Shown here: positions 25,158 through 41,722 of the stretch, piece after piece
Layout of the letters: every line of letters starts with the position of its first letter
Numbering within the stretch: the first letter of the stretch is position 1
Origin: a virus
Lineage: Duplodnaviria > Heunggongvirae > Uroviricota > Caudoviricetes
Direction: 5' to 3' (one strand)
IMG/VR virus record: IMGVR_UViG_3300018475_000004
Length of the DNA stretch: 64,000 nt
Position numbers and translations under genes: made by a program
Notes under the pieces: generated by a model
Told to the model about the DNA's origin: nothing
Seen by the model: only the letters and a program-made list of their open reading frames with translations
Databases searched by the model: none

Positions 25158-25191
25158 ATATGTATAAAGAATAAGGAAGGAATTGAAAAAT

Positions 25192-25791: not shown

Positions 25792-25803
25792 GGAGGATAG
25801 CCA

Positions 25804-26634
25804 ATGATTAGAGTAGGTAATATTTCTATTCGTAGCGGTCAGTCCATGTTCCCCGATCACTCTTTGCTTATCAAGCTCAATCCAGAAGAGATGTTTGATA
25901 ACAGAGGCGCCATCAAGGTGGAATGGCTTTATGAAGACGATAGCGAACTCTTCACTCTAATCTGCGTGAAGCGTCATATCGACCGCCACTTTGGCAACAC
26001 CGATGTTGTTCTGGATATGCCCTACATTCCCCACGCTCGCATGGATCGAGTAAAGTCTGATTCTGACGTCTTTACTCTGAAGTATTTCTGCGAGATTATT
26101 AACTCTCTGAACTTCAAGATTGTTTGGGTGCGGGACGCCCATAGCAACGTGAGCCTGGCTCTGCTTGATCGAGTAGAGGATACTGGTGTTGAGCCTTATA
26201 TTCATAAGGCTACTCTGGCTTCCAAGGCTGAAGTTCTGTTCTTCCCCGATGAGGGCGCAATGAAGCGCTACTCTGATAAGTCCCCTCTACCTTATGCTTT
26301 TGGTATGAAAAAGCGAGACTGGGCTACTGGCAAGATTTTAGGTCTAGATATTATCAATGCCGAGAACATCAAAGACAAAGATGTTCTGATTGTTGATAAT
26401 ATTTGCTCCAGAGGTGGCACTTTCTACCACTCCGCAAAGGCTTTGCTGGAAGCAGGTGCCAAGAGCGTAAGTCTGTATGTGACCCACCTGGAAGAAACTG
26501 TTACTCTTGGCGATCTGCCCGAGTCCGGTCTGATCAAGCATATCTATACCACTGAATCCATTTTCCCCCAGATGCTGATTGATGGTCCCTATGACGGTGC
26601 TGGCTGGGGCGGTTGGATTACTATATTTCACTAA
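25804..26634 (+). CDS. Ribose-phosphate pyrophosphokinase (Prs) family protein, short form; either a PRPP synthetase or an ADPR-pyrophosphokinase (Adps-like)
   Basis: 'MPYIPHARMDRV' matches Prs 'IPYFGYARQDRR'. 'VLIVDNICSRGGTFYHSAKALLEAGAKSV' matches Prs '[28 protein letters not shown]'. Confidence 0.65.
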   Translation: MIRVGNISIRSGQSMFPDHSLLIKLNPEEMFDNRGAIKVEWLYEDDSELFTLICVKRHIDRHFGNTDVVLDMPYIPHARMDRVKSDSDVFTLKYFCEIINSLNFKIVWVRDAHSNVSLALLDRVEDTGVEPYIHKATLASKAEVLFFPDEGAMKRYSDKSPLPYAFGMKKRDWATGKILGLDIINAENIKDKDVLIVDNICSRGGTFYHSAKALLEAGAKSVSLYVTHLEETVTLGDLPESGLIKHIYTTESIFPQMLIDGPYDGAGWGGWITIFH

Positions 26635-26652
26635 GAAAGGAGCATACTCCAA

Positions 26653-27161
26653 TGGATAAGTATGAAACCCTCAAAGCTGATATGACGACAGCTTTAAAAG
26701 AGGGTAATAAACTTCGTCGTCTAACTATCGCCGATATGGTAGCTTCCATTGACAAGGCTGCTACTGCCGACAAAACCCGTGTTGCAATCACTGATACACT
26801 GGTTGATGAAGTATTGACAAAGTATGTCAAGACTGTAAAAGAAATGATCGATACCTGCCCCGACGGTGAGAAGTATGCGGCCCGCAAGGCTGAATACCGC
26901 GAAAAGTTGGCTATTGTGGAGGAATATGCTCCCAAGGTCATTGACGATGTTGATGAAATCGTCAAGATGGTCAATTACTGGGGTATCTGCAATGCTGTTT
27001 CTATCACTTCTGGCAATAAGGGCGTTATCGTAAAGAATGTAATGCCTTTCTTGAAAAAGCAGGGTTGTGATATGAAGTCTGCTAAGATGGCTGTGGATAA
27101 GGCTATGGCTCAGGGCGACGTCGTTCTGGAAGCCCAGCTGAATGGAACAGGAGATAACTAA
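26653..27161 (+). CDS. GatB/YqeY-domain protein
   Basis: AAAGGAG RBS; 'YETLKADMTTALKEGNKLRRLTIADMVASI' is YqeY-like. Confidence 0.5.
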
Positions 27162-27162
27162 A

Positions 27163-27933
27163 ATGGAAAGCTTTGACGAACGCATAAAACAATTGAATGA
27201 AATGATTGCGGGAGCCAAGCGTATCGTATTTTTGACCGGAGCTGGTATCTCTACCGGCTCCGGCATTCCGGACTTCCGCAGCAATAATGGCTTATACAAT
27301 ACCAGTGAAGAAGATGAGCCAGAATATATGTTGAGCCACACCTGCCTCAAAATGGAACCTGAGCGGTTCTTCCAGTATTTACGAAATAATATGGATTTTC
27401 GCAATGCTGAACCGAACATCGCTCATAAAAAAATCTCTGAGCTGCAGCAAGCAAGAACTGTGTCTGTGGTTACTCAGAATATTGACGGACTCCATGAAAA
27501 AGCCGGTTCAAAAGTAGTTGACACAATTCATGGCACCATGGCTGACTGGTACTGCCCTGGCTGCTTATGTGAGACATTCATTCCAGAAGATGTAATGGAT
27601 GGCAACTATGATGATAAAAATGGTGTGCCGAGGTGCCCTCTATGCGGCGGCGAGTTCACTATCCGCCCCGATATCACCCTATATGGCGAAAGTTTACCGG
27701 GTCTTCAGTGGCAAATGGCAATGGCTCATGTATCTGCAGCTGACCTTATGATTATCGTTGGCACTTCTTTGGCAGTCGCTCCCGCAAATTTCTTACCTGA
27801 TTGGTTCCACTCTGATAATATCGTAATAATCAATCGTGATGAGGTCGAGCGCAAAGGTTATTTCCCCGTAAAATTGCGTTTTACCGAAGATATTTGTGAG
27901 GTCTTTGAAAGGATTGAAATTCCCAATGATTAA
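27163..27933 (+). CDS. Sir2-family NAD-dependent protein deacylase (CobB-like)
   Basis: 'VFLTGAGISTGSGIPDFRSNNGLYN'; CxxC...CxxC zinc module 'CPGC...CPLCGG'. Confidence 0.75.
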   Translation: MESFDERIKQLNEMIAGAKRIVFLTGAGISTGSGIPDFRSNNGLYNTSEEDEPEYMLSHTCLKMEPERFFQYLRNNMDFRNAEPNIAHKKISELQQARTVSVVTQNIDGLHEKAGSKVVDTIHGTMADWYCPGCLCETFIPEDVMDGNYDDKNGVPRCPLCGGEFTIRPDITLYGESLPGLQWQMAMAHVSAADLMIIVGTSLAVAPANFLPDWFHSDNIVIINRDEVERKGYFPVKLRFTEDICEVFERIEIPND

Positions 27934-28180
27934 ATTTTTACTTGCCTGTCTGGCAATGGTTTGTACCATTTTTGGCTTTGCCCTAGTCGGAGCAGCAATC
28001 TGGCTTGTAGCCTCTTTTCTCGAAGCTCTATTCCTTGTCATTCCTGCTTCTGTCGGCGTAGTTATCGCCGGAATTGTAGTCATTGGCTGGATAGGCTGGA
28101 TGATTTGGTTCGTATTCAAAGTTTGTTGGATTTTCGCAAAATCCTTATATGAGACGTTCTGCGAAACATTTATCAAGTAA
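27926..28180 (+). CDS. Small membrane protein (2 TM)
   Basis: ATG overlaps the preceding TAA; hydrophobic. Confidence 0.45.
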   Translation: MIKFLLACLAMVCTIFGFALVGAAIWLVASFLEALFLVIPASVGVVIAGIVVIGWIGWMIWFVFKVCWIFAKSLYETFCETFIK

Positions 28181-28185
28181 TATTG

Positions 28186-28216
28186 AGAGTCCCTCTGCGT
28201 TCAGAGGGACTTTTTT
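28186..28216 (+). terminator. Terminator (gagtccctctg...cagagggac plus T6)
   Basis: Seen in sequence. Confidence 0.7.
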
Positions 28217-28243
28217 GATTTTTTATAAAAAATATGATATAAT
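28215..28243 (+). promoter_or_regulatory. Conserved cassette promoter
   Basis: ttgattttttataaaaaatatgatataat. Confidence 0.7.
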
Positions 28244-28275
28244 ATATATACAAAAAGTAAGGAAGTGAAAAAAAA

Positions 28276-28542
28276 ATGAGTTTTTACTGTTATACAGGTT
28301 TCAAAGATATCAATATCCACACTCCCGAAGAAATGACTAAAATGCATACTCGTCAGCTACTGGCTGAACTGAGAAGCACCTACACCTGGGGTTGTCAGCA
28401 TTGTTGGGGGAACGAAGATTGGGATCAGTTGAACTGCTACCGTGCCCAGCTCAAGGCTGAGCTGGCGACCAGAGAACACGTCCCGAATAAGTGGGAAAGC
28501 AAAGGTCTGCGTAAGCTAAGAAAGAAGAGAGGGTATAAGTAA
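28276..28542 (+). CDS. Hypothetical protein (88 aa)
   Basis: RBS aaggaag; TAA stop. Confidence 0.4.
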   Translation: MSFYCYTGFKDINIHTPEEMTKMHTRQLLAELRSTYTWGCQHCWGNEDWDQLNCYRAQLKAELATREHVPNKWESKGLRKLRKKRGYK

Positions 28543-28748
28543 TGGAAAAAGTTGCTTATGTGTCCGTCACATACCTCTTCACAATAGAGCCTGAATTAGT
28601 CGGTCTCGAAGATGACTGCGGTAAAGAGGAATTTGAAACCGCAGTTGAAAATTATATGGAAGCGGTTACCGATTATGTAGCACATCAGGCTGATGTATTT
28701 CCCAATGACATTGAAATTTCCGTTTGCGGATTTGAGAAAGGAATTTGA
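28542..28748 (+). CDS. Hypothetical acidic protein (68 aa)
   Basis: ATG overlaps the preceding TAA. Confidence 0.4.
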   Translation: MEKVAYVSVTYLFTIEPELVGLEDDCGKEEFETAVENYMEAVTDYVAHQADVFPNDIEISVCGFEKGI

Positions 28749-28753
28749 TAACT

Positions 28754-30535
28754 ATGGATAATTACAATCCTCTTCTGCTGATTGACTTCTATAAAGCTAC
28801 TCACCATGAGCAGTATCCCAAGGGTCTGACCAAGATGGTTTCCTATTACACTCCCAGAATAAGTCGCCTGGATGATGTAGACCATATCACTTTCTTTGGT
28901 CTGCAGGCTTTCATTGACGAATATCTGATCAATGGTTTCAGAACTTGGTTCTTTGACCGTGATCTGGATGAAGTTCTGTATGAGTATAACCGTGTTTTGA
29001 CCTATACCATGGGACCCGGTTCTTATGAGGATCGTAAGATTCGTGACCTGTGGGAGTTGGGTTATCTACCCCTGGAAATTCGTGCTGTCCCCGAGGGGTC
29101 TCGCACTAAAGTTGGTGTACCTCAGATTGAGATTTCCAATACTCATCCCAATTTCGTCTGGCTGGTAAATACCATCGAAACTCTGCTGTCCTGCTCCATG
29201 TGGCATACGCAGATTGCGGCTGAAGTCGGTTATCGTTACCGCAAGGTCGTTAATACTTGGGTTGAAAAAACCTGCGACTCTTCTGTAAGTCCTTGGAAGA
29301 TGATCGGTGATTTCTCTATGCGTGGTCAGCACTCCGCTGAATCTGCTATCAAGGCTTCTGGCGCATGGCTGTTGAGCCACCATAATACTGCAACTGTTCC
29401 CGCAATCATGTGGATGGAAAAGCATTATGATTGCAACATCGAAAATGAGCCTGTCGGCTTCGGTGCTATCTCCACCGAACACTCTGTCATGTGTTCTAAC
29501 TTCGCCGTTGATGGTGATGAAATTACTCACATCAAGCGCCTGCTGAGTGAAATTTATCTACACCACAGTTTCTCCATGGTTTCCGACTCTTATGACTACG
29601 AAAATCTGGTTATGAACCTGCTTCCTCAGTGCAAAAGAGAAATTATGGCTCATGATGGTACTCTTCTGGTGCGTGGCGATTCCGGTAATCCTGTCGAAAT
29701 CCTGGCTGGTAAGCCCATTGACTGGCTGACTCCTTATGATGACGAAGAAGCTGAAAAGCTGTTTTCCGACAAGGAATTCACTAAGGACTGGATGTATGAT
29801 TTCTGCCGTGACTGCGGTGTTGAGGAAGAAACTGTCCTGTATTTCCATTTCAATGACAAGTTCTACGCTCTGAATGTCTATCCTGACTGGACTAATGAGC
29901 GTGGCGCATGGACTGATCGTAAGTATTACTACGTTGAAGACTATGCTTTTGAGTGGGAAGAAATTCAGCCTTCTCTGGAACTGCTCGGCACCGTTTGGGC
30001 ATTGGACCAGATTGTCGGTCATACTGTGAATGAAAAGGGCTATAAGGTTCTGGACCCCCATCTAAAGGCAATCTACGGCGACAGCATTCTGCCTGACTAT
30101 GCCAATGAAATTTACAAGCGTCTGGCCGCCCAGGGCTACGCTGCCAATAATGTCGTTATGGGCGCTGGTTCTATGTTCATGATGGCTCTGGTTTGTGCTG
30201 ACGATGAAGGTACTCTCCAGTTCGCTGGTAAGTGGAACGGTACCAATGCTGGTCCTTATACTCGTGATACTTTTGGCATTGCTGTAAAGGCTACTTATGC
30301 CGAAGACTGCGTTGGTAATGGTATCAATATCTTCAAGAAGCCTAAAGCTCTGGCTTGGAAAAAGAGCCAGAAGGGTTGCTGTGTTGTTGCTCTGGATGGT
30401 GAGTCCTATACCGACGAGCACGCATTTGAAGATACTCTGGGCGAAAAGAATCTGCTTCAGACTGTGTTCTATAATGGTAAATTGACCAATAGACAGAGTC
30501 TGGCTGAAATCCGCGAAAGACTGTGGGGTAAGTAA
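28754..30535 (+). CDS. Nicotinamide phosphoribosyltransferase (NAMPT/NadV family; could alternatively be a Namat-type nicotinamide ADPR transferase)
   Basis: 'MDNYNPLLLIDFYKATHHEQYPKGLTKMVSYYTPR' is the NAMPT N-terminal signature; about 590 aa. Confidence 0.8.
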   Translation: MDNYNPLLLIDFYKATHHEQYPKGLTKMVSYYTPRISRLDDVDHITFFGLQAFIDEYLINGFRTWFFDRDLDEVLYEYNRVLTYTMGPGSYEDRKIRDLWELGYLPLEIRAVPEGSRTKVGVPQIEISNTHPNFVWLVNTIETLLSCSMWHTQIAAEVGYRYRKVVNTWVEKTCDSSVSPWKMIGDFSMRGQHSAESAIKASGAWLLSHHNTATVPAIMWMEKHYDCNIENEPVGFGAISTEHSVMCSNFAVDGDEITHIKRLLSEIYLHHSFSMVSDSYDYENLVMNLLPQCKREIMAHDGTLLVRGDSGNPVEILAGKPIDWLTPYDDEEAEKLFSDKEFTKDWMYDFCRDCGVEEETVLYFHFNDKFYALNVYPDWTNERGAWTDRKYYYVEDYAFEWEEIQPSLELLGTVWALDQIVGHTVNEKGYKVLDPHLKAIYGDSILPDYANEIYKRLAAQGYAANNVVMGAGSMFMMALVCADDEGTLQFAGKWNGTNAGPYTRDTFGIAVKATYAEDCVGNGINIFKKPKALAWKKSQKGCCVVALDGESYTDEHAFEDTLGEKNLLQTVFYNGKLTNRQSLAEIRERLWGK

Positions 30536-31041
30536 TGAGTATTTACCATGTAAAAGGTAGTCTGCTTGATGCAGATGTTGACTATTACTGCCATCAGGTG
30601 AATTGCCAGGGTCGCATGGGCTCTGGCATCGCTAAGGCAATTAAAGATAAGTGGCCCGTAGTTTACAGCGAATATATCCAGAAGTATAATGATACTGAGG
30701 ATAATATTCTGCGTAACTGCGGTGGTTTTGAACATTGTCCCGAGACCAGCGAAGTGCTTTTAGGCGATATTCAACTAGTCCAGGTGGATAAAACTCATAC
30801 TGTAATCAATATGTTCGCCCAAGAGCACTATGGTTATGATGGCCGCAGATACACTTCTTATGATGGCTTCTGGAGCTGCCTCGGACATATCCGAGAATTT
30901 GTTCCAGAAGGCGCAACAATTGGCTTCCCATCCCATATTGGTTGCGGCCTGGGTGGCGGCAACTGGGAGGTCATCAAGACAATGATCGAGCAAGTCCTTG
31001 ATGAGGACTATGAAGTATATATCTACTATTTGGAGGAGTAA
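30535..31041 (+). CDS. Macro-domain protein (ADP-ribose / O-acetyl-ADP-ribose processing)
   Basis: 'VDYYCHQVNCQGRMGSGIAKAIKDKWP' and 'GCGLGGGNW'. Confidence 0.65.
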   Translation: MSIYHVKGSLLDADVDYYCHQVNCQGRMGSGIAKAIKDKWPVVYSEYIQKYNDTEDNILRNCGGFEHCPETSEVLLGDIQLVQVDKTHTVINMFAQEHYGYDGRRYTSYDGFWSCLGHIREFVPEGATIGFPSHIGCGLGGGNWEVIKTMIEQVLDEDYEVYIYYLEE

Positions 31042-31043
31042 AA

Positions 31044-31877
31044 ATGGGTAGAGCATTTGACGCTGAACTGGAAATCCAGTATATGATTACCGAAATCAAA
31101 AAGTATTTCGTGAAGAATGGTGGTAAAACCACCAAAGCTGTTATCGGCATCTCCGGTGGCAAGGATTCTACAATTGCGGCTGCCCTGTTGTGTCGCGCTT
31201 TGGGTTCTGAGAATGTCTTCGGTGTTCTGATGCCCTGTGGCGAACAGGCTGACATCGCAGATTCTTACAAAGTCGTAGAGCATCTGCATATGCCCTATAC
31301 TGTCGTCAATATTGGCTCCACCATGGATGCTTTGGTGGAAGCAATCCCCGAAGAGTATTTCGGTGGTGGCAATGATGTATTCTACACTAATACTCCTGCT
31401 CGCCTGCGCATGACTACTCTGTATGGCATCGCCGCATTGATCGGCGGTCGAGTGGTTCATACTGGCAATGCATCTGAAATGTATGTCGGCTATACTACTA
31501 AGTTTGGCGATATGGCCGGTGATTTCTCCATTTTTTACGACTTTTATGTTCGTGAAATTTTGGCTATCGGTGATGCTCTGAATCTGCCTGCTGAGCTGGT
31601 TCATAAGGCTCCTGGCGATGGCATGACCGGTAAAACCGATGAAGATAATTTCGGCTTCACTTATGAAGTCCTCGATGCTTATCTTCTGGACAATAAGACG
31701 CCTTCTTATGAAACTCTGCGACTAATTGAAGAGCGTCATGAGCGAAATGCTCATAAAATGCGTATGCTGAATATTCCCTATATTCGTGCCCGCACCAGAA
31801 AATGGGAAGGTAGTTCCAATCGACATGGAGGTTGCTTTGAAGTCCTCCATGAAGATACCCCGTTTATTGATTTCTAA
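31044..31877 (+). CDS. nadE: NH3-dependent NAD+ synthetase
   Basis: PP-loop 'GISGGKDSTIAAALL'; 'TGNASEMYVGYTTKFGD'. Confidence 0.8.
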   Translation: MGRAFDAELEIQYMITEIKKYFVKNGGKTTKAVIGISGGKDSTIAAALLCRALGSENVFGVLMPCGEQADIADSYKVVEHLHMPYTVVNIGSTMDALVEAIPEEYFGGGNDVFYTNTPARLRMTTLYGIAALIGGRVVHTGNASEMYVGYTTKFGDMAGDFSIFYDFYVREILAIGDALNLPAELVHKAPGDGMTGKTDEDNFGFTYEVLDAYLLDNKTPSYETLRLIEERHERNAHKMRMLNIPYIRARTRKWEGSSNRHGGCFEVLHEDTPFIDF

Positions 31878-31886
31878 GGAGGAAGT

Positions 31887-32330
31887 ATGATTACTGAATT
31901 TGATGGAAAATACGCTTTTCTAAGTAACTTCTATTATGCCCCTTTTACCTATGATGGAATTGAATATCCTACCAACGAACACTTCTTTCAGGCAATGAAA
32001 ACCCTCGACCAAGAGGAAAGAAAGAAGATTGCGGCCGCCGCAACTCCGGGTAAGGCTAAGCGAATGGGCCGTCAAGTTCAGTTGCGTGAGGATTGGGAAC
32101 AGGTCAAATACACTGCTATGCGCGTTGGCGTAGGGCGGAAATTTGATACGCACCCTAAACTCGCAAGTAAGTTGATTGCTACAAATGATTGCATTCTTAT
32201 TGAAGGCAACTCTTGGCATGACAATACTTGGGGTTCCTGCTTCTGTCCCAAATGTGCAGAAATTGCTGGTAAAAACTGGCTTGGTGAAATTCTTATGGAA
32301 AAGCGTAAAGAATTGATTTCCGAACTGTGA
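31887..32330 (+). CDS. NADAR-domain protein (YbiA-like; ADP-ribose / NAD-related N-glycosidase family)
   Basis: 'YAFLSNFYYAPFTYDGIEYPTNEHFFQAMK...GRQVQLREDWEQVKYTAMRVGVGRKF...LIEGNSWHDNTWG' is the NADAR/DUF1768 signature. Confidence 0.65.
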   Translation: MITEFDGKYAFLSNFYYAPFTYDGIEYPTNEHFFQAMKTLDQEERKKIAAAATPGKAKRMGRQVQLREDWEQVKYTAMRVGVGRKFDTHPKLASKLIATNDCILIEGNSWHDNTWGSCFCPKCAEIAGKNWLGEILMEKRKELISEL

Positions 32331-32333
32331 TAC

Positions 32334-32361
32334 GAGACCCCTCATTTTGAGGGGTCTTTTT
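32334..32361 (+). terminator. Terminator (gagacccctc...gaggggtct plus T5)
   Basis: Seen in sequence. Confidence 0.7.
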
Positions 32362-32388
32362 GATTTTTATAAAAAAATATGATATAAT
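32360..32388 (+). promoter_or_regulatory. Conserved cassette promoter
   Basis: ttgatttttataaaaaaatatgatataat. Confidence 0.7.
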
Positions 32389-32417
32389 ATATATACAAAG
32401 TAAAGAGAGGGGAAAAG

Positions 32418-32669
32418 ATGTGCAAGTATGCTATTTACGAGAAAAATAGATTAAAAGTCTATCGTGATGAGCGATACAGCTATGATATTGTATGTTTTTG
32501 TGACTCTCTGGAAGATGCTCAAGATATGGTCTTATCTCTAACAGAAGATTTTCTTTATAAGACTTTTTGCGAGCATTGTCAACTTTTTAGCGTAAAAGAT
32601 TCAATAACACTTATGAAAATGATTCCCAAATATGGTTGGGATAAATACACAATTAAAGAGAGGGATTGA
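32418..32669 (+). CDS. Hypothetical protein (83 aa)
   Basis: RBS gagagggg; TGA stop. Confidence 0.4.
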   Translation: MCKYAIYEKNRLKVYRDERYSYDIVCFCDSLEDAQDMVLSLTEDFLYKTFCEHCQLFSVKDSITLMKMIPKYGWDKYTIKERD

Positions 32670-32992
32670 TAAGAATGACAGTAAATATTGATGCCCCCAT
32701 CATTGTAGCTTTTACTGACAAAATTAGGGATCGTATAGTACTTGATCCGTATGTTTATTTTACCGAAGAATTTACCGGAAAAGGTCTGGTTGCGGTCTAT
32801 GGCTGTTCCAATTTGAAAGACTTTTTCAATCTTATGGAGCACCTGGTTGAGTATCCCGATGGTATGTGGTACTGGGTGCTTCATGACGGAAAATGTATCT
32901 GTTCAGGTGCCTGCGACCCCGCTGACATTGAGGGGTTTGAGGAGTACTTCGGTATCACTAGCGAACAAGCAAGAGAACTGGAAATCAAGTAA
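32666..32992 (+). CDS. Hypothetical protein (108 aa)
   Basis: ATG overlaps the preceding TGA; TAA stop. Confidence 0.4.
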   Translation: MIRMTVNIDAPIIVAFTDKIRDRIVLDPYVYFTEEFTGKGLVAVYGCSNLKDFFNLMEHLVEYPDGMWYWVLHDGKCICSGACDPADIEGFEEYFGITSEQARELEIK

Positions 32993-33002
32993 GGAGGATT
33001 AT

Positions 33003-33563
33003 ATGGTTGGAGTAATTCTGTTCCGCGCACAGCCTTTTCATAATGGTCATATGAACATGGTGAAGAAGGCTTATGAAGATTGCACCGCAAATCATTGCGA
33101 CCTGCACATTTTCGTGGGTTCCGCAGACAAGTCTGGCACCAAGCGCAATCCTCTGCCCATTGATTTTCGTCTGATGCTCCTGGAAGGTGCTTTACACGAG
33201 CAATTTTCTACCGAAGATCTGAAACACATTCATGTCTATCCCTTGGATGATATGACTGATGAAAGCGACAACAGTCACGGTTGGGGCCGATACCTTTACA
33301 TCAAGATGTTCGGCAAGACCAAGGATTCTGATATGACCATCTACTACAGTGACGATCCCCGCATCATGCTCGGTTGGTTCGCACAGGATGAAAGATGGTT
33401 ACTTCGCTTCAAATTCCTGGACCGATATGAGGGTATCAGCGCTACTCTGGTGCGGCAGGCATTCCAGATGGAGGGTGGCGACTATGCTGTAAAACAGTTA
33501 GTTCCGTCTTTTGTCTATAACTACCGAGAAGAAATTCGGCAGTATATCCAGGAGGCCAAATGA
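33003..33563 (+). CDS. Nicotinamide-nucleotide adenylyltransferase (NadM/NMNAT-like cytidylyltransferase fold)
   Basis: AAGGAGG RBS; 'FRAQPFHNGH' (HxGH motif) and '...IFVGSADKSGTKRNP'. Confidence 0.7.
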   Translation: MVGVILFRAQPFHNGHMNMVKKAYEDCTANHCDLHIFVGSADKSGTKRNPLPIDFRLMLLEGALHEQFSTEDLKHIHVYPLDDMTDESDNSHGWGRYLYIKMFGKTKDSDMTIYYSDDPRIMLGWFAQDERWLLRFKFLDRYEGISATLVRQAFQMEGGDYAVKQLVPSFVYNYREEIRQYIQEAK

Positions 33564-33808: not shown

Positions 33809-33837
33809 TTGATTTTTATAAAAAAATATGATATAAT
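33809..33837 (+). promoter_or_regulatory. Conserved cassette promoter
   Basis: ttgatttttataaaaaaatatgatataat. Confidence 0.7.
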
Positions 33838-33870: not shown

Positions 33871-34158
33871 ATGAAACCGCTAATTAGAAAGGCGGTCAAA
33901 AAGGCATTTATCGCAATTGTGATATGTGCTATATTGTCCGCCTTACTCACAGGACTCGCCCCAATCCTGATGAATGAAGTCGCAATGGGGCAGCTAGAAA
34001 ATGACAACTTCGGTTTTGTAGCGATGGAAACCGCAAGTCATGTCCAGAATATGGTCGCAAGTGGAGAAGTGCTGGTTGTTCTTATTTGCGGCGCATCCAT
34101 CGCAGTAGATTTCGTAAAATATTTCAACGATAGAAAGGAAAATATTACAAATGAATAA
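33871..34158 (+). CDS. Small membrane protein (95 aa)
   Basis: RBS aaaggagaaag; hydrophobic. Confidence 0.45.
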   Translation: MKPLIRKAVKKAFIAIVICAILSALLTGLAPILMNEVAMGQLENDNFGFVAMETASHVQNMVASGEVLVVLICGASIAVDFVKYFNDRKENITNE

Positions 34159-35095
34159 GGTAAAGAAGTTGGTTCTGCTCGTCCTGATGCTGGTCCTGTG
34201 TTTGAGCCTGGCTGGTTGTCGAAAGCCCTATGACAAGCCTGAGTTCGCCAAGATTTCTCCCTCGCAGACCGGTTTCCTGATCCCTCTGGTTGGTGATTCC
34301 AGTTCTCAGTCCGCCTTTGCTTCTGAAGAGCTGCTGGCTGAGCACAAGGTTGCCACTAAAGAAGTCCAGATTCCTCACCGCTGGGTCCAGACGGGCCGCA
34401 TGAGCTGGACTGGTGAATGGAAGCCTTCCGCAGAACTGATTGTCGTTGAGCGTAAGCCTGTATCTCGCTCTTGGGATTCCGGCGACGACACTGCTTCTTC
34501 TTCTAACCGCGCCATCTTTGGCGGTAGTTCTGATAACATCGGCATCTATGTCGGTATGAACTGTACTACCATGATCGAGGAAGCTGATGCCGTAAAGTTC
34601 CTGTATCGCTACAATAACACTCCTCTGGAGCAGATTATTGACAACGACATTAAGAAGCTGGTTGAAGACCGTTTCAACATTGAAACTTCTAAGTACACTT
34701 CTACTGAGCTGGGCGCCAACAAGGGCAAGATTATGGAAGCTGTCAAGGAATATGTAATTCCTTACTTCAAGGAATACGGCATTACCATTACTGTCCTGGG
34801 TATCAAGGAAGACATTTCCTATGAGAACCCCGAAATCCAGAGGGCAATCGATGCCAAGTTTGCGTCCGAGCAGGAACTGGTAATTCAGCAGAATAAGAAT
34901 GAAGCTAATATCGCTAAGGCTGAAGCCGAAGCTGAGGCTATGATTATGTTGGCTGAGGCCCAGGCTGAAGCTAACAGATTACTGGCTGAATCTCTGACTG
35001 GTAATCTGCTCGAAAAGATGTACTACGAAAAGTGGGACGGTAAGTTGCCTACCATCTATGGTGGCGATAATACCCCCGTCATTCAGATGCCCTAA
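34151..35095 (+). CDS. SPFH/band-7 domain lipoprotein (prohibitin/HflKC-like)
   Basis: Lipobox 'SLAGC'; SPFH core; C-terminal 'NIAKAEAEAEAMIMLAEAQAEANRLLAESL' helix. Confidence 0.6.
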   Translation: MNKVKKLVLLVLMLVLCLSLAGCRKPYDKPEFAKISPSQTGFLIPLVGDSSSQSAFASEELLAEHKVATKEVQIPHRWVQTGRMSWTGEWKPSAELIVVERKPVSRSWDSGDDTASSSNRAIFGGSSDNIGIYVGMNCTTMIEEADAVKFLYRYNNTPLEQIIDNDIKKLVEDRFNIETSKYTSTELGANKGKIMEAVKEYVIPYFKEYGITITVLGIKEDISYENPEIQRAIDAKFASEQELVIQQNKNEANIAKAEAEAEAMIMLAEAQAEANRLLAESLTGNLLEKMYYEKWDGKLPTIYGGDNTPVIQMP

Positions 35096-35101
35096 ATTTA
35101 G

Positions 35102-35136
35102 TCCCCCGGAATAAAATCCGGGGGATTTTTTCTTTT
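35102..35136 (+). terminator. Terminator (tcccccgga...tccggggga plus T-run)
   Basis: Seen in sequence. Confidence 0.7.
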
Positions 35137-35165
35137 TTGATTTTTTATAAAAAATATGTTATAAT
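35137..35165 (+). promoter_or_regulatory. Conserved cassette promoter
   Basis: ttgattttttataaaaaatatgttataat. Confidence 0.7.
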
Positions 35166-35180
35166 ATATATAGAAAGTGA

Positions 35181-35366
35181 GTGATAAATATGTATGCAGT
35201 AAAAGGCTTTATATTTACAGAAAAGGATAATGTAATTCACAGAATTCCTTTGCCGAATGGCCTTCTCGCAAAAGATCATGACGAGGCCCATGAAACATTT
35301 GCGGCAATGGGAATTACGAATTATATGTTTACACTTATTCCAGTAGTAATAAAGGAGGGAGAATAA
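35181..35366 (+). CDS. Hypothetical protein (61 aa)
   Basis: Small ORF; TAA stop. Confidence 0.35.
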   Translation: MINMYAVKGFIFTEKDNVIHRIPLPNGLLAKDHDEAHETFAAMGITNYMFTLIPVVIKEGE

Positions 35367-36094
35367 TGGCTACATATGCGCTGGGCGACCTGCATGGGCA
35401 TTTAGAAGTGTTTCGTAAGATTCAAGCATTTTTAAAGCCCGATGATAAGGTCTATTTTCTGGGCGATGCGTGCGACCGCGGCCTGCAGTCCTATGAATGT
35501 ATCAAGGCAGTTGCGGCAGACCCTCGATTTGTTTACATTAAGGGCAACCATGAAGATATGCTCGTAAAGGCCATCAAAGATTATCTCGATGATGGTTTCA
35601 TGTGGGATTATCACTCTTATTCTCTTTCTTCTCACAATGGTGGACGACCTACAATGGAAGCTTGGGAGCGGGACCCTGACCGCATGAAGTGGTATGAGTA
35701 TCTGCGTGACCTGCCTACCCATGTAGAGTATACTAATGCTCTTGGAATGAGAATTCTGCTGAGTCATGCGGGTTATACTCCTTATTGGAGTGATCCTGAA
35801 GCTGACGAAGATAAAGAGCTTATCATTCCCGATGATGAGCATCTTATCTGGAACAGAGATGACTATTTCGATCCCTGGGACCCACTGAACGAGGGTGGTT
35901 ATGATGACTTCCTTGTTGTTCATGGTCATACTCCTGTATGTTATATCAGTGAAGATTTGTATATCGATTGGGAGTCCGGTCCCATCTGGTATGCGGACGG
36001 CCATAAAGTGTGCATTGACACTGGTGGATTCTTTATGGGTGAGTTCTGTCTTTTGGATTTGAACACCTACCAAAGTTATTCATTTTTCAGTTAA
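35366..36094 (+). CDS. Ser/Thr protein phosphatase (PPP family, lambda-phosphatase-like)
   Basis: 'GDLHGH', 'LGDACDRG', 'GNHE'. Confidence 0.7.
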   Translation: MATYALGDLHGHLEVFRKIQAFLKPDDKVYFLGDACDRGLQSYECIKAVAADPRFVYIKGNHEDMLVKAIKDYLDDGFMWDYHSYSLSSHNGGRPTMEAWERDPDRMKWYEYLRDLPTHVEYTNALGMRILLSHAGYTPYWSDPEADEDKELIIPDDEHLIWNRDDYFDPWDPLNEGGYDDFLVVHGHTPVCYISEDLYIDWESGPIWYADGHKVCIDTGGFFMGEFCLLDLNTYQSYSFFS

Positions 36095-36105: not shown

Positions 36106-36134
36106 TTGATTTTTATAAAAAAATATGATATAAT
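36106..36134 (+). promoter_or_regulatory. Conserved cassette promoter
   Basis: ttgatttttataaaaaaatatgatataat. Confidence 0.7.
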
Positions 36135-36164: not shown

Positions 36165-36422
36165 ATGGCAAAGCAGAAAGCATATAACGAACACAGCTTT
36201 TATTGTATCAGCTGTGGCAACAAGGGTATTCCTCTGATGCGCCTCAAAGGTCATCAACATGGACGGATGCATCGCAAGAAGCTCTACTGTCCGACCTGTC
36301 GTATGGAAATCAATCATGTCGAATGTAAGACAATGGAAGATGTAGAAGAATTTCGTTATAATTTTGAGAATGGGGTGTATAAGGATGAAGCGGAAACGTC
36401 TATTTGTCATGTCCGGTCCTAG
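36165..36422 (+). CDS. Zinc-ribbon protein (two CxxC pairs); ends at a TAG, and if TAG is read through it extends to TGA at about 36504
   Basis: RBS aaagaaagg; 'CISCG...CPTC'. Confidence 0.45.
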   Translation: MAKQKAYNEHSFYCISCGNKGIPLMRLKGHQHGRMHRKKLYCPTCRMEINHVECKTMEDVEEFRYNFENGVYKDEAETSICHVRS

Positions 36423-36915
36423 TGGATGCGGCAAGAGCTCCTGGATTCAGAAGCAGATTGCGATTCACGGTGGCAACTGGATTTCCAGAGATTTGATTCG
36501 TCTTTCTCTGGTTGAAGAGAATGAAAGTTATTTCTCTCACGAAGATCAGGTTCTGCGGGAGTTTTATAAGGAAATCAACAACAAGTTGAGTTCTGACTAC
36601 TTCCATTCTGATGTTTATGTTGATGCCACCCACTTGACACCTAAAGCTCGAAGAGAGCTGTTCCGCAATATCAATCTGAAGAACGCTGCTGAAGTAATTG
36701 GTGTTTCTTTTGAAATTCCTACTGATGTGGCGGTCGAAAGAAACAAGAACCGCGTCGGACGCGCGGACGTTCCTATGACTGTAATTCGTGATATGAATAA
36801 GCGTTTCATTGCTCCTTCTCTGTATGAGGGTTATGATATGATTATCCATATTAATGAATTTGGTGAAGAAAGAAAGGAAGTGAAAACCGATGGGAAGGAT
36901 TTTTGTGACTTCTGA
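36385..36915 (+). CDS. P-loop kinase (Walker A 'GPSGCGKSS'); possible polynucleotide 5'-kinase (Pnk-like)
   Basis: 'LFVMSGPSGCGKSSWIQK' resembles the Pnk kinase domain. It is translationally coupled to the downstream metallophosphoesterase by a 26-nt overlap. Confidence 0.45.
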   Translation: MKRKRLFVMSGPSGCGKSSWIQKQIAIHGGNWISRDLIRLSLVEENESYFSHEDQVLREFYKEINNKLSSDYFHSDVYVDATHLTPKARRELFRNINLKNAAEVIGVSFEIPTDVAVERNKNRVGRADVPMTVIRDMNKRFIAPSLYEGYDMIIHINEFGEERKEVKTDGKDFCDF

Positions 36916-37570
36916 TACTCATTTCGGTCATGACCGAGAGTTTCTATGGGGTCCAAGAGGTTTCTCGAATTACATGGAGCATGATAATGAAGTTATCAGA
37001 CGATGGAATGAGGTTGTTGGTCCCGATGATACCGTATTCCATTTGGGTGATGTAATGCTCGGTGATAATTCTTATGGTATGGACTGTTTAGCAGAGCTAA
37101 ATGGTAATATTAAGATTATCCCCGGTAATCATGACACCGCAACTCGTTTGGTACTTTATAAGAAGCTCCCTCGTGTTGAAGTTCTCGGTTTGGCTGAAAT
37201 GATCAAGTATAAGAAGTATAACTTCTATTTGAGTCATCATCCTACCATTACTTCTAATCTGGAAAAGGCTCCGTATCTGCGGATGCACCTAATCAATCTG
37301 TTTGGTCATACTCATCAGCAAAACAAGTTCTATATGAGTATGCCCTATATGTTCCATGTTGGTATGGACTCCAATAATTGCACTCCGGTTCTACTAGATG
37401 ATGCAATTGAAATGATGAAGAAAGAAACCGAAATTTGTATTGAAATGCTTGGCCTCCAGGAGGAGCAGAAAAATGAATGCGACACCTGCGGCCACAACCC
37501 CCAATGCTCCGCAAGTGCAGATGGAAAGCGCTGCAAGGATTACCTTGCAGATCCGCTGCTAGGAGGTTGA
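36890..37570 (+). CDS. Calcineurin-like metallophosphoesterase; possible 2',3'-phosphatase partner of the upstream kinase
   Basis: 'VTSDTHFGHD', 'HLGDVMLGD', 'PGNHD', 'GHTH'. Confidence 0.7.
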   Translation: MGRIFVTSDTHFGHDREFLWGPRGFSNYMEHDNEVIRRWNEVVGPDDTVFHLGDVMLGDNSYGMDCLAELNGNIKIIPGNHDTATRLVLYKKLPRVEVLGLAEMIKYKKYNFYLSHHPTITSNLEKAPYLRMHLINLFGHTHQQNKFYMSMPYMFHVGMDSNNCTPVLLDDAIEMMKKETEICIEMLGLQEEQKNECDTCGHNPQCSASADGKRCKDYLADPLLGG

Positions 37571-37572
37571 TC

Positions 37573-37842
37573 ATGGGACACGCAATTCAATACCGAGATT
37601 ATCACTGCTCAACAAGTGAAAAAGCAATTCTAAAAGAACTCAATAGTTTTGCTTATGATCCGCAAGAGAGTTCTGGTTATCATGGAAATCTAAAATTCCA
37701 TAAAGAGCCTGTTTATAAAAACAGAGAAGATGCCGCCGAAGCCATTACAAAGATGGATAAAGGTTGGTATGATGACCATGCAGTGCGGTATCGAAATGGC
37801 CGCAAGATTTACTGGCTCGTGAAAGTAGAGTGGCACTGTTGA
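37573..37842 (+). CDS. Hypothetical protein (89 aa)
   Basis: AGGAGG RBS; TGA stop. Confidence 0.4.
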   Translation: MGHAIQYRDYHCSTSEKAILKELNSFAYDPQESSGYHGNLKFHKEPVYKNREDAAEAITKMDKGWYDDHAVRYRNGRKIYWLVKVEWHC

Positions 37843-38056: not shown

Positions 38057-39589
38057 ATGCCCGCATTTTTGATTCCCACTTTGTCCATCGCTGGTCTGGC
38101 GATTCTGGCAATCATCGTATTCGTCGTTATCTTCAAGGCTTTCTGGAAGGTCGCTGGTACTAACGAAGTTCTGATCGTATCTGGTCTGGGTCGAGTAAAG
38201 ACCCGCACCGGTGGCGGTATCTTCGTACTACCTATCCTGCAGAAGACTCAGCGAATGACTCTGGAAAACATCCAGGTTGACTTCACTTCTCGTCAGGAAA
38301 TCCCCACCAAGGACGCAATTCACGTTCTGGTTGACGCAGTTGCCAACATGAGCATTTCCATTGATCCCGCACGTCAGGCTATTGCGGCTTCCAAGTTCGC
38401 CGGCTATTCCACTGCCCAGATCCGTGATATTGTAATCCCTGTTCTGGAAGGTAATATCCGTGAAATCATTTCTCAAACCATGTTTGAGGACCTGATCCGT
38501 GGCGACAAGAAGATCTTTGCAGAGCGTATTCAGGAGAACGTCACTCCTAACCTGGCCGATATGGGTATCGATCTAACCACCTTCAACATTCAGAACTTCT
38601 CTGATAAGAATGGTGTAATTCGTGACCTGGGTATCGAGAACATCGAGAAGATCAAGAAGGAAGCATCCATCGCTGCTGCTAACGCAAAGGCTGAGGTTGC
38701 TGTCGCCCAGGCTAAGGCTGATAAGGCCGCTAACGATGCCAAGGTTGAGGCCGCAACTGAGATCGCTAAGAAGCAGACCCAGTTCGCTATCGAAAAGGCT
38801 CAGATGCAGGAGCAGGCTGACACCGCTCAGGCAAAGGCTGACGCTGCTAAGGCCATCGAGGCTGAGAACCAGCGTAAGGCAAAGGAAATCGCAGAAGCAG
38901 AAGCAAACCTGGCTCGTCAGGAGAAGGCTATCGAACTCCAGGAGCGTGAAGTCGCTATCAAGGAGCGTAAGCTGGAAGCTGAAGTGAAGAAGACCGCTGA
39001 AGCTAAGAAGTATGCCGAGGCTCAGGAAGCAGACGCACGTGCTTACGCCGCTCAGAAGGCTGCGGAAGCTGAACTGTTTGAGCGTGAGCGTCAGGCAGAA
39101 GCCGCTCGTATCGAGGCTGAGAAGAAGGCTGCGGCCGACCTGGCTCTGGCAACTGCTGAGGCAGAAGCTCAGAAGCGTCTGGCTGAGGCTATTGAGGCCG
39201 AAGGTAAGGCTAAGGCTGCCGCCGCACAGGCTCTGGGTGTTGCAGAAGCAGAAGCTATCCGTGCTAAGGCTGAGGCTGAAGCAAAGGGTATGCTGGAAAA
39301 GGCTGAAGCACTGAAGCAGTACGGTGACGCTGCTAAGCAGCAGATGGAATTGGATGCTATCAAGGTGCTGTATGAGCAGCTGCCTGCGATTGCAACCGCT
39401 ATCGGCGAAGGCTATAAGGGTGCTAACATCCACGTGATTGGCAACGATGCTGGTCAGCTGGCTGGTAACATGATGAGTGGTATCACTCAGATTACCGAAG
39501 GTTTCCGTGGTGCAACCGGCATGGACCTGACCTCTCTGGTCGGTGGTATGCTCGGCGCCAAGATCGTTGACAACAACGACAGCAAGTAA
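38057..39589 (+). CDS. Flotillin-like protein (SPFH domain plus long Ala/Glu-rich coiled coil; YqiK/FloT-like)
   Basis: RBS aaaaggag; N-terminal TM segment; SPFH core 'NEVLIVSGLG...'; EA-repeat coiled coil of about 200 aa. Confidence 0.8.
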   Translation: MPAFLIPTLSIAGLAILAIIVFVVIFKAFWKVAGTNEVLIVSGLGRVKTRTGGGIFVLPILQKTQRMTLENIQVDFTSRQEIPTKDAIHVLVDAVANMSISIDPARQAIAASKFAGYSTAQIRDIVIPVLEGNIREIISQTMFEDLIRGDKKIFAERIQENVTPNLADMGIDLTTFNIQNFSDKNGVIRDLGIENIEKIKKEASIAAANAKAEVAVAQAKADKAANDAKVEAATEIAKKQTQFAIEKAQMQEQADTAQAKADAAKAIEAENQRKAKEIAEAEANLARQEKAIELQEREVAIKERKLEAEVKKTAEAKKYAEAQEADARAYAAQKAAEAELFERERQAEAARIEAEKKAAADLALATAEAEAQKRLAEAIEAEGKAKAAAAQALGVAEAEAIRAKAEAEAKGMLEKAEALKQYGDAAKQQMELDAIKVLYEQLPAIATAIGEGYKGANIHVIGNDAGQLAGNMMSGITQITEGFRGATGMDLTSLVGGMLGAKIVDNNDSK

Positions 39590-39604: not shown

Positions 39605-39636
39605 AGCCCCAGGAAGAAATTCCTGGGGCTATTTGT
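39605..39636 (+). terminator. Terminator hairpin (agccccagg...cctggggct)
   Basis: Seen in sequence. Confidence 0.6.
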
Positions 39637-40434: not shown

Positions 40435-40486
40435 ATTGGCTTCCAAGTTCCTGACGACGACCAAGAGGAAGAAGAGGTTATTGAAG

Positions 40487-41722
40487 ATGATGTATAAATT
40501 TTATGACACTTGTTCTTTACTTCTAAAAGCAAACCATTTATGGGACGAAGATTGTACTTTGGTCATTTCTTCCATTACATTAGAAGAATTAGAACATATC
40601 AAGACTTCCGCAAATAAAGACCCAGATGTAAAGTTTGCGGCCCGCAAAGTAGTCCATGAATTGGATCAACACTATGGAGATTATGAAATCGTTATTTGGA
40701 GCAGTGATTTTGCACTAAGTTTATTGTCTAATGAAGATGGTAAAATTATTGCTTGCGCTGACTGGTTCGCTCGTAACCACCAAGACGATGAAGTAATTTT
40801 CGTAACAAATGATTTATGCTGTAAGCATTTAGCAAGAACTGTATTACCCATTCCCGTTGAATCATATCAAGAAGAAGCATATGATTATGACGGATATAAA
40901 GAGGTATATTTAGATTCTGAAGCTATGAGTAATTTTTATTCTAATATGAATAAGAATTTATTTGACTTATATATAAATGAATATTTGTTAGTGTATGACC
41001 AAGAGACAGGTGAGTTAGTGGATAGACTATGCTGGACAGGTGAAGGTTATCGTCATTTATCGTATGACTCATTCAACTCTAATTATTTCGGCAATGTCAA
41101 GCCAATGAAAAGTGATGCTTATCAATCCTTGGCTTTCGACAGCTTGAGTAATAACAAAATTACTATGATTAAGGGACCTGCGGGAACCGGTAAAACTTTC
41201 ATTAGTCTAGGCTTCTTGTTACATAAGCTGGAACGCAATCGCATTGATAAAATTATTGTGTTCTGTAATACTGTAGCAACTAAGAATTCTGCTAAATTGG
41301 GTTATTATCCTGGTACCAGGGATGAAAAGTTATTAGATTCTCAAATTGGTAATCTTTTAATTAGTAAATTTGGTGGTCGTATTGCTGTTGAACAAATGAT
41401 TAACGACGAAAAATTAATTTTGCTTCCACTATCTGATATTCGTGGTTATGATACTACTGGAATGAAAGCTGGCATTTATATTTCTGAGGCTCAAAACTTA
41501 GATATTGAGCTGATGAAACTAACATTACAACGTATCGGTGAAGATAGCATTTGTATTATTGATGGTGACTGTAAAGCACAGGTTGATGATATTCACTTTG
41601 CTGGTAGTAGTAATGGTATGAAGCGAGCTTCTCAAGTTTATCGTGGCGAAGATATATACGGTGAAATTACTTTGAAAAATATTCATCGTTCTAAAATCGC
41701 TCGTATTGCTGAAAAAATGTAA
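40487..41722 (+). CDS. PhoH-like ATPase with an N-terminal PIN domain (PhoH2 architecture)
   Basis: Walker A 'GPAGTGKTF'; N-terminal PIN-like acidic residues. Confidence 0.7.
   Translation: MMYKFYDTCSLLLKANHLWDEDCTLVISSITLEELEHIKTSANKDPDVKFAARKVVHELDQHYGDYEIVIWSSDFALSLLSNEDGKIIACADWFARNHQDDEVIFVTNDLCCKHLARTVLPIPVESYQEEAYDYDGYKEVYLDSEAMSNFYSNMNKNLFDLYINEYLLVYDQETGELVDRLCWTGEGYRHLSYDSFNSNYFGNVKPMKSDAYQSLAFDSLSNNKITMIKGPAGTGKTFISLGFLLHKLERNRIDKIIVFCNTVATKNSAKLGYYPGTRDEKLLDSQIGNLLISKFGGRIAVEQMINDEKLILLPLSDIRGYDTTGMKAGIYISEAQNLDIELMKLTLQRIGEDSICIIDGDCKAQVDDIHFAGSSNGMKRASQVYRGEDIYGEITLKNIHRSKIARIAEKM

Follow-up and report, generated by a model that had tools for sequence, protein, structure and literature searches.

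We propose that three tightly linked genes of a large uncultured phage, encoding a zinc-ribbon protein, a P-loop kinase and a metallophosphoesterase referred to here as MPP2, form an operon for the healing of nucleic-acid ends. The genes lie in a 64,000-nucleotide stretch of the IMG/VR virus record IMGVR_UViG_3300018475_000004 (the window, by which we mean the whole stretch analysed), which reads as one-strand, phage-like DNA of 40.9% GC. On the interpretation that we favor, to which we assign a probability of roughly 0.55, the 5'-kinase and MPP2, an aq_1665-type Mn2+/Ni2+ phosphoesterase, would act with the zinc ribbon to feed a phage RNA ligase and so counter host RNA cleavage. This interpretation starts from gene structure, family assignments, active-site conservation, linkage and natural fusions, and from these we propose the activities, RNA rather than DNA as the substrate, the division of labor between phosphoesterases and a role for the zinc ribbon. 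A megablast comparison of the module region with 50,697 phage records gave zero matches, which indicates that the phage has no close cultured relative; the relatives of the module sit on contigs of 130–400 kb. Coordinates of the features are collected in Table 1.

The kinase is assigned by sequence and predicted fold to the polynucleotide kinase (Pnk) clade, and 5'-OH kinase activity is predicted for it. The protein matches AAA_33 in Pfam (2e-15) and the 'polynucleotide kinase' family phrog_505 in PHROGs (4e-18), the latter only over positions 2–142 of 295. Its best sequence matches in the PDB are the kinase domain of Clostridium thermocellum Pnkp (CthPnkp; entries 4gp6, 4jst and 4mde, E ~1e-4) and T4 Pnk (1ly1, 1ltq). 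With an AlphaFold2 model of the kinase (predicted local distance difference test score, pLDDT, 88.7) as the Foldseek query, the CthPnkp kinase domain (CthPnk) occupies ranks 1–2 and 5–9 at template modeling (TM) scores of 0.70–0.73, followed by PSTK, mammalian PNKP and T4 Pnk; the highest-ranking adenylate kinase is at 31, and gluconate kinases also fall behind. In NCBIfam, the bacter_Pnkp model (TIGR04075) and PSTK are matched at ~5e-9 each, the former over positions 9–136 only and at 34.8 bits against a cut-off of 750.

The active site points in the same direction. Residues that are essential or contact the substrate in CthPnk, namely K21, S22, D38, R41, T80, R116, R120 and R123 (PMC3902929), align with K17, S18, D36, R39, T82, R119, R123 and R126 of the phage kinase. 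The P-loop, G11-P-S-G-C-G-K17-S18, conforms to GxxGxGK[ST], with G11, G14, G16 and K17 invariant in 18 homologues, and in the homologue alignment K17, D36, R39, T82 and R123 are invariant across the family. The DxxR motif (D36, R39) and T82 align with D38, R41 and T80 of CthPnk, in which the general-base Asp is salt-bridged to the Arg and the Thr anchors the first phosphodiester of the acceptor (PMC3902929). The lid arginines R119, R123 and R126 are contained in the segment ERNKNRVGR, and R119 and R126 are present in most family members. Thus, the polynucleotide kinase proposed in the initial annotation of this locus is borne out, both by the best sequence and fold matches to CthPnk and by retention of all essential Pnk residues, and the clustering with dNMP or adenylate kinases that the annotation had named as refuting evidence was not seen, given that Pnk structures outrank adenylate kinase.

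Conserved adjacency and the existence of natural fusions show that the kinase and MPP2 are a genuine functional pair rather than an accident of gene order, as had been suggested from the single locus. MPP2 lies directly 3' of the kinase in every metagenomic relative with flanking sequence, down to 35–41% kinase identity, and also in three contigs from metagenome-assembled genomes (MAGs). An IMG/VR scan with the MPP2 profile returned 80 loci at 45–74% identity, not all of them independent, and in 69 of the 80 a kinase is fused to MPP2 or lies no more than 300 nt upstream. The exhaustive profile search gave 14,895 kinase-family representatives, the best-scoring of which are mostly stand-alone proteins of 155–175 amino acids (aa). 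Three natural fusions of 341–348 aa (P0174, P0299 and P0306) have the kinase at the N-terminus and a Metallophos_2 domain at the C-terminus; this second part shows 46% and 42% identity to the MPP2 of the window (E 8e-52 and 8e-48) and does not resemble the lambda-phosphatase-like enzyme that is encoded farther upstream in the window.

Across relatives L001–L017, identities to the window range from 36 to 86% for the kinase and from 46 to 76% for MPP2, in no consistent order: one relative (L014) has values of 36% and 73%, respectively, and another (L004) 71% and 46%, with the same gene order in both. Because the two identities vary independently while the order is maintained, the linkage itself appears to be under selection, and the decoupling points to replacement of alleles, or to mosaicism, while gene order stays fixed. 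When the kinase-family profile was run against 185,579 species genomes, three stand-alone kinase–MPP2 pairs were found, their contigs having been assigned by binning to Erysipelotrichaceae, Bacilli and Clostridia. The other matches examined, at ~30% identity, are mostly N-terminal domains of 850–930-aa Pnkp proteins that carry GDxxDRG and GNH[DE] within the same open reading frame (ORF).

The Pfam and PHROGs matches and the many homologues indicate that the kinase and MPP2 ORFs are real genes. We place the kinase start at the ATG rather than at an in-frame TTG at 36364 because 17 aligned homologues all begin with MKxKRLF. Both the ORF listing and the raw sequence of the + strand confirm that the downstream metallophosphoesterase gene overlaps the kinase gene by 26 nt, as first described, and an AGGAAG Shine-Dalgarno-like site lies within the kinase gene at ~36876–36881, 8–11 nt 5' of the MPP2 ATG. 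At one extreme among relatives the two genes overlap by 26 nt, and at the other a gap of 1 nt separates them. Because the kinase of the window has a private C-terminal extension, the exact overlap is a local feature; what is conserved is the tight juxtaposition of the two genes, not the length of the overlap.

The pair described in the initial annotation therefore stands, but its extent does not: the annotation missed a conserved gene for a zinc-ribbon protein, which overlaps the start of the kinase gene. Most relatives have this gene immediately 5' of the kinase, and with it the operon of zinc ribbon, kinase and MPP2 is complete. Its product has four cysteines and the invariant pattern CxxCG..R..H.KKL.CxxC..E.N..E. 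Searched against the PDB, the zinc-ribbon family profile returned only ribosomal protein bL33 (13 entries, E 0.1–0.8, sub-threshold), with alignments that span the whole of bL33 and a common pattern of KK.YC..C....H.E. Single-sequence Pfam scans gave no support for this likeness, which is not significant and is a lead only. One IMG/VR locus (L024) has the zinc ribbon directly before MPP2, with the kinase absent.

MPP2 is classified, by sequence comparison, in an aq_1665-like, phrog_547-type branch of the metallophosphoesterase (MPP) superfamily that has no characterized function and is distinct from the lambda and CthPnkp phosphatases. It matches Metallophos_2 in Pfam (1e-8, above the gathering cut-off), the 'phosphoesterase' family phrog_547 over residues 1–193 (2e-45) and YfcE in NCBIfam (4e-5). 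The MPP2 family profile finds only aq_1665 of Aquifex aeolicus (1xm7, 4e-13) and GpdQ (6e-6) in the PDB, and at E ≤ 10 neither lambda phosphatase (1g5b) nor the CthPnkp phosphatase (4j6o) is matched. In a fold search with the MPP2 model, the only meaningful matches were aq_1665 and MJ0936, aq_1665 being the sole significant one. Although aq_1665 is thus the nearest solved relative, it is only ~20% identical and has no assigned function or partner, and MPP2 differs from it by the additional segments GHTHQ and FHVGMDS and, in some members, by a Cys-rich tail. A literature search found no paper on the function of aq_1665/1xm7.

The motifs of MPP2 are SDTHFGHD, HLGD, GNHD, SHHP, GHTHQ and the family-specific FHVGMDS, and D9, H11, D54, N80, H81, H116, H140, H142 and H156 are invariant. 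The motif set of a binuclear metallophosphoesterase is complete (D9-x-H11, G53-D54, G79-N80-H81-D82, H116 and G139-H140-x-H142), with all positions invariant or nearly so. The GNH(D/E) histidine has been described as a residue that helps to determine 2',3'-cyclic phosphodiesterase activity in the superfamily, and the arginine of GDxxDRG is Arg237 in CthPnkp (PMC3675462). MPP2 retains every metal ligand and the GNH(D/E) histidine, a feature permissive for cyclic phosphodiesterase activity; it lacks the GDxxDRG arginine, the corresponding segment reading HLGDVMLGD. A Cys-rich C-terminal tail (CxxC...C...C; residues ~191–226, positions 37460–37570) is present in some relatives and absent from others, and may be an optional zinc knuckle. 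Several relatives have MPP2 tails ending in PPDGGYYG. In all, the window holds four MPP-superfamily genes, the further two being those at 13471–14325 and 14928–15674; one is of the phrog_1649 type and the other is a divergent phrog_547 paralogue of MPP2 (1.5e-21, ~25% identity).

Taken together with the conserved active sites, the operon suggests the following scheme. Asp36 of the kinase would act as the general base for transfer of the gamma-phosphate of a nucleoside triphosphate (NTP) to a 5'-OH, with Arg39 and Thr82 holding the first phosphodiester of the acceptor and Lys17/Ser18–Mg2+ and the lid arginines binding the NTP. MPP2 would open and/or remove a 2',3'-cyclic phosphate or 3'-phosphate to leave a 3'-OH, and the zinc ribbon is likely to be a nucleic-acid-binding subunit. 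The healed ends could then be sealed by the phage RNA ligase. The lambda-like phosphoesterase may contribute to processing of the 3' end, either in common with MPP2 or through a division of tasks in which, for example, one enzyme is the diesterase and the other the monoesterase.

Several observations weigh against this scheme. (i) In the phrog_547/aq_1665 branch, activity has been measured for no member, and the nearest solved structure is functionally uncharacterized. (ii) The phrog_547 family occurs in ~1,500 cultured phage records, and only ~20 of these have both the kinase and MPP halves nearby; because phrog_547 is mostly found without a kinase, its general role may not be RNA end healing. 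(iii) The structure model of MPP2 is poor (pLDDT 68.6, with residues 110–160 unreliable) and is therefore unusable for inferring the active site or substrate. (iv) PSTK scores on a par with Pnkp in both NCBIfam and the fold search, so homology does not fix the phosphoacceptor, which could be an RNA end, a DNA end or tRNA-linked. (v) The RNA ligase is encoded 13 kb from the module, and its link to the module is one that we infer. (vi) No tRNA genes were found in the window. (vii) The module adjoins NAD+ salvage genes in several phage families. (viii) Finally, the lambda-like ORF is more Pnkp-like than MPP2 and could be the true 3'-healing enzyme.

This last point concerns a claim of the initial annotation, that the kinase and MPP2 together constitute a split CthPnkp. 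The kinase clade, the functional pairing and the phosphoesterase assignment at superfamily level all hold, but MPP2 belongs to the wrong family, its profile failing to detect 1g5b or 4j6o. The homologue of the CthPnkp phosphatase in the window is instead the ORF at 35366–36094. Its family profile matches 1g5b (8e-26), ApaH (7e-15) and 4j6o (1.6e-11) over nearly the full length, and the protein carries the motifs GDACDRG, GNHE and GHT. In PHROGs it matches the NinI-like family phrog_246 (1e-36) and positions 176–327 of phrog_8238, a Pnkp-like tri-domain profile; in NCBIfam it matches ApaH (NF001204, 5e-14) and positions 222–270 of bacter_Pnkp (9e-4). Conversely, the phosphatase domains of bacterial Pnkp proteins match this ORF and never MPP2.

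It is thus conceivable, although in our judgment unlikely, that the true 3'-healing partner of the kinase is the lambda-like enzyme and that MPP2 has another job, such as acting on cyclic or linear nucleotide signals, as a nuclease or as a pyrophosphatase. Besides the homology to the CthPnkp phosphatase, with the phrog_8238 and TIGR04075 matches falling on the phosphatase region, the predominance of phrog_547 enzymes without a kinase favors this assignment, and lambda phosphatase has 2',3'-cyclic phosphodiesterase activity according to two reports (PMC2190708, PMC3675462). Homologues of the lambda-like ORF are kept upstream of the kinase in relatives, and a similar gene adjoins an RNA ligase in the Vibrio phages JSF10 and Gary. 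However, a lambda-like gene lies within 4 kb in only ~36 of the 80 IMG/VR loci, compared with 69 for the kinase–MPP2 pair; translational coupling is with MPP2; and the natural fusions join the kinase to MPP2 and never to a lambda-like domain. The two assignments are not mutually exclusive, as the end-healing scheme leaves room for both phosphoesterases.

That the module heals DNA rather than RNA ends, repairing breaks with 5'-OH and 3'-phosphate termini made by host nucleases for sealing by an NAD+-dependent DNA ligase, seems to us improbable. CthPnk was crystallized with a DNA oligonucleotide as acceptor (PMC3902929), the top fold matches include mammalian PNKP, which repairs DNA, the window contains a LigA-like ORF at 49994–51982 (from its N-terminal translation), and in phage phi92 an MPP and an ATPase lie near an annotated ATP-dependent DNA ligase. 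The recurrent neighbors of the module, however, are RNA enzymes (RNA ligases, Thg1-like protein, Tpt1, exoribonuclease and PIN-PhoH), and the nearest relatives of the kinase are RNA-repair Pnkp proteins and the tRNA kinase PSTK.

Slightly less probable still is a role in small-molecule metabolism, in which the pair would act on NAD+/ADP-ribose-derived or other nucleotides as part of the neighboring NAD+ salvage and counter-defense cluster, for example by phosphorylating a nucleoside or ADP-ribose derivative and hydrolyzing cyclic or phospho-ADP-ribose signals: NAMPT-like, NadE, NADAR, macro and NMNAT-like genes do adjoin the module in the window and its relatives, Prs and NAMPT adjoin the analogous cluster in T5-like Vibrio phages and phi92, and the MPP superfamily contains many small-molecule phosphodiesterases (compare the YfcE and GpdQ matches of MPP2), but the kinase retains Arg39 and Thr82, the residues that in Pnk enzymes hold the first acceptor phosphodiester, clusters with kinases of polynucleotides and tRNA instead of those of nucleoside monophosphates or nucleosides, and coexists in relatives with a separate AAA_28 (NadR-type) kinase for salvage. 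A role as a 5-hydroxymethyldeoxyuridine DNA kinase in hypermodification was set aside given the RNA-enzyme neighbors and a ThyA-like ORF directly before a DHFR-like ORF (53922–55270, read from translations), which points to ordinary thymidylate synthesis.

Repair of RNA is the classic way in which phages overcome host anticodon nucleases and other defenses directed at RNA; in the known healing enzymes, the phosphoesterase that accompanies the Pnk kinase is of the HAD, lambda-type MPP or HD kind. Compared with these, the end-healing operon proposed here is of mixed character. As in bacterial Pnkp (CthPnkp, Pnkp-Hen1), which provides the nearest solved relative of the kinase by sequence and fold with all catalytic residues kept, the kinase is partnered with a binuclear metallophosphoesterase, and a homologue of the lambda-phosphatase type lies two genes upstream. 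Unlike CthPnkp, a single polypeptide of ~870 aa, the phage proteins are small and separate, lack a ligase domain and have a zinc-ribbon partner, and the coupled or fused phosphoesterase is aq_1665-like, without the GDxxDRG arginine or a detectable match to 4j6o. A crude regular-expression search for a Hen1-like S-adenosylmethionine methyltransferase motif I found none in the window ORFs of at least 80 aa, nor was one seen in the Pfam-scanned neighbors, although no Hen1 profile search of all ORFs was made.

The resemblance to T4 Pnkp (PseT) and Rnl1 lies in a phage kinase of the Pnk clade, a paired 3'-phosphoesterase, an RNA ligase elsewhere in the genome and a presumed role in countering tRNA-cleaving host defenses. 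In T4, however, the phosphoesterase is a fused HAD (DxDxT) acylphosphatase and the ligase is Rnl1, whereas here a metallophosphoesterase is separately encoded and the ligase is of the Rnl5/DRB0094 type; no DxDxT pattern occurs in the window ORFs. HD-Pnk and the Pnk of phage RM378, in which a Pnk kinase is joined to an HD phosphohydrolase, represent another non-HAD phosphoesterase combination for end healing; a literature search on HD-Pnk operons gave nothing of use. In contrast to these, no HD domain accompanies the kinase here, the sole HD_4 protein being encoded at 23536–24192.

The T5-like Vibrio phages JSF10 (gp018–gp021) and Gary (gp173–gp178), which are cultured and unrelated to the phage of the window, have annotated but uncharacterized clusters in the contiguous order NinI-like phosphatase, RNA ligase, PNK-like ATPase and phrog_547 phosphoesterase, with Prs/NAMPT downstream. 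As in the window, phrog_547 directly follows a small PNK-related P-loop protein; its neighbors include a NinI-like phosphatase, an RNA ligase and genes for NAD+ salvage. Their P-loop protein, however, belongs to phrog_2071 and lacks DxxR, the ligase is Rnl1-like, and no zinc-ribbon gene was seen. Orthology of the JSF10 'ATPase' with the window kinase was considered and rejected, with hhalign aligning the P-loop only and blastp giving no match; because phrog_2071, although related, is a different P-loop family, the Vibrio neighborhood is an analogy. In Enterococcus phage 113, two phrog_547 genes without a kinase lie between an exoribonuclease and a Ser/Thr phosphatase.

By family, therefore, only the kinase qualifies as a member of a known system, that is, of the Pnk clade. 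The locus lacks the defining features of bacterial Pnkp because it is not tri-domain, its coupled phosphoesterase is not lambda-type and it has no ligase domain, and the absence of a HAD domain likewise sets it apart from T4 Pnkp. We tentatively suggest, while regarding it as somewhat doubtful, that zinc ribbon, kinase and MPP2 constitute an end-healing machine of three subunits, not described before and in some cases a fusion of two domains, which would be the fourth independent Pnk–phosphoesterase pairing after those with HAD, lambda-type MPP and HD; that an L33-like ribbon would direct it toward tRNA or rRNA; and that RNA 3'-end healing would be the first function for phrog_547/aq_1665. Within the literature library that was searched, no description or assay of a module of zinc ribbon, Pnk and aq_1665-type MPP or of its fusions was found. 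A comparative-genomics review noted that a few jumbo phages have calcineurin-like or HD domains in place of the HAD phosphatase (PMC7824862). Because that replacement had already been raised computationally, the advance here is incremental, not categorical; it consists of a distinct and recurrent pairing with an uncharacterized MPP branch and a zinc ribbon, seen in 69 of 80 IMG/VR loci, several Firmicutes-associated MAG contigs and fusions. If the predicted activities are correct, they would give a function to a very common 'phosphoesterase' of large phages, widen the repertoire of end-healing chemistry and offer a compact kinase/phosphoesterase pair for RNA end-manipulation tools.

Table 1 Features of the proposed end-healing locus and of the related genes in the window.
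Feature	Position	Strand	Remarks
Rnl5/DRB0094-type ATP-dependent RNA ligase, 487 aa	21779-23242	+	Candidate sealing partner
Pribosyltran-domain protein	25804-26634		NAD+ block
NAMPT-like protein	28745-30535		NAD+ block
Macro-like protein	30535-31041		NAD+ block
NadE-like protein	31044-31877		NAD+ block
NADAR protein	31887-32330		NAD+ block
NMNAT-like cytidylyltransferase	32997-33563		NAD+ block
Lambda-phosphatase/ApaH-like metallophosphoesterase, 242 aa	35366-36094	+	Two ORFs upstream of kinase
Promoter-like site	36106-36134	+	TTGATT-17-TATAAT, extended -10 TG; before zinc-ribbon gene (consensus scan)
Four-Cys zinc-ribbon protein, 85 aa	36165-36422	+	phrog_1257 7e-9; 3' end overlaps kinase start by 38 nt
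Pnk-clade P-loop kinase, 176 aa	36385-36915	+	ATG 36385, TGA 36913-36915; P-loop GPSGCGKSS
Kinase/MPP2 overlap (translational coupling junction), 26 nt	36890-36915	+	Different frames; raw sequence
MPP2 metallophosphoesterase, 226 aa	36890-37570	+	ATG 36890, TGA 37568-37570
ORF of 89 aa, function unassigned	37573-37842	+	2 nt after MPP2 stop, behind AGGAGG site
Intrinsic-terminator-like hairpin, strong	39605-39630	+	11-bp stem, 7 GC pairs

The RNA ligase that would seal the healed ends matches phrog_968 'RNA ligase' (1e-59), the Pfam PHA02142 OB domain and RNA_ligase, and TIGR02306 (4e-15), with a weak match to NgrRnl. Further genes of the window add a repair context. A Thg1-like tRNA-His guanylyltransferase or 3'-5' polymerase is encoded at 16527–17309 (Pfam Thg1 9e-30, phrog_4717 1.5e-81), and in one MAG contig (L030) a Thg1 homologue and the kinase module are 5 kb apart. 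A Pol-beta-type nucleotidyltransferase at 11433–12317 (phrog_388 1.5e-17, no Pfam match) is possibly of the RNA-ligase-associated RlaP type (PMC7824862), and an RNase T-like 3'-5' exonuclease is found at 20580–21491 (Pfam 6.5e-14). Two relatives (L022 and L023) have two nucleotidyltransferase copies 4 kb upstream of the module. In L014, a 172-kb metagenomic contig, a Tpt1/KptA RNA 2'-phosphotransferase (PF01885; 2588–3139) is located immediately upstream of the lambda-like gene, a hint that the pathway, in some of its versions, leaves a 2'-phosphate where the ends are joined; a tblastn search with the L014 protein did not find Tpt1 in the window.

The NAD+ salvage and ADP-ribose genes form a contiguous block (25183–33563) that is kept beside the kinase module in relatives. 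In addition to the members in Table 1, a Sir2-like ORF (27142–27933) and a nicotinamidase-like ORF (25183–25791) were recognized by eye only.

With respect to transcription, the promoter-like site before the zinc-ribbon gene is only suggestive, since the scan gave a total of 18 sites, not above the 14.5 expected from shuffled sequence. Identical intergenic TTGATT-17-TGnTATAAT sites are found at 33809–33837, 35137–35165 and 36106–36134, and the three may represent a phage promoter class. Transcription of the unit probably ends at the hairpin at 39605–39630, because this is the first strong + strand terminator after the module. A matching terminator-like hairpin lies at 35100–35127, upstream of the unit with the lambda-like MPP, whose gene belongs to that preceding unit. 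The 89-aa ORF that follows MPP2 has no Pfam, PHROG or NCBIfam match, and homologues occupy the same position in three relatives (L004, L014 and L016).

Two SPFH/Band_7 (HflC/flotillin-like) proteins, encoded at 34151–35095 and 38057–39589, bracket the module, an arrangement kept in relatives; a long, coiled-coil-like tail rich in Ala, Glu and Lys is found on the second. Enterococcus phage 113 likewise has an HflC-like gene near its phosphoesterases. Farther downstream, at 40436–41722, is a fusion of a PIN domain with a PhoH-like ATPase (PIN_4 2.5e-11, PhoH 8.7e-27), and a PIN-PhoH gene lies 1–3 kb downstream of the kinase–MPP2 pair in nearly all relatives, including the distant IMG/VR loci.

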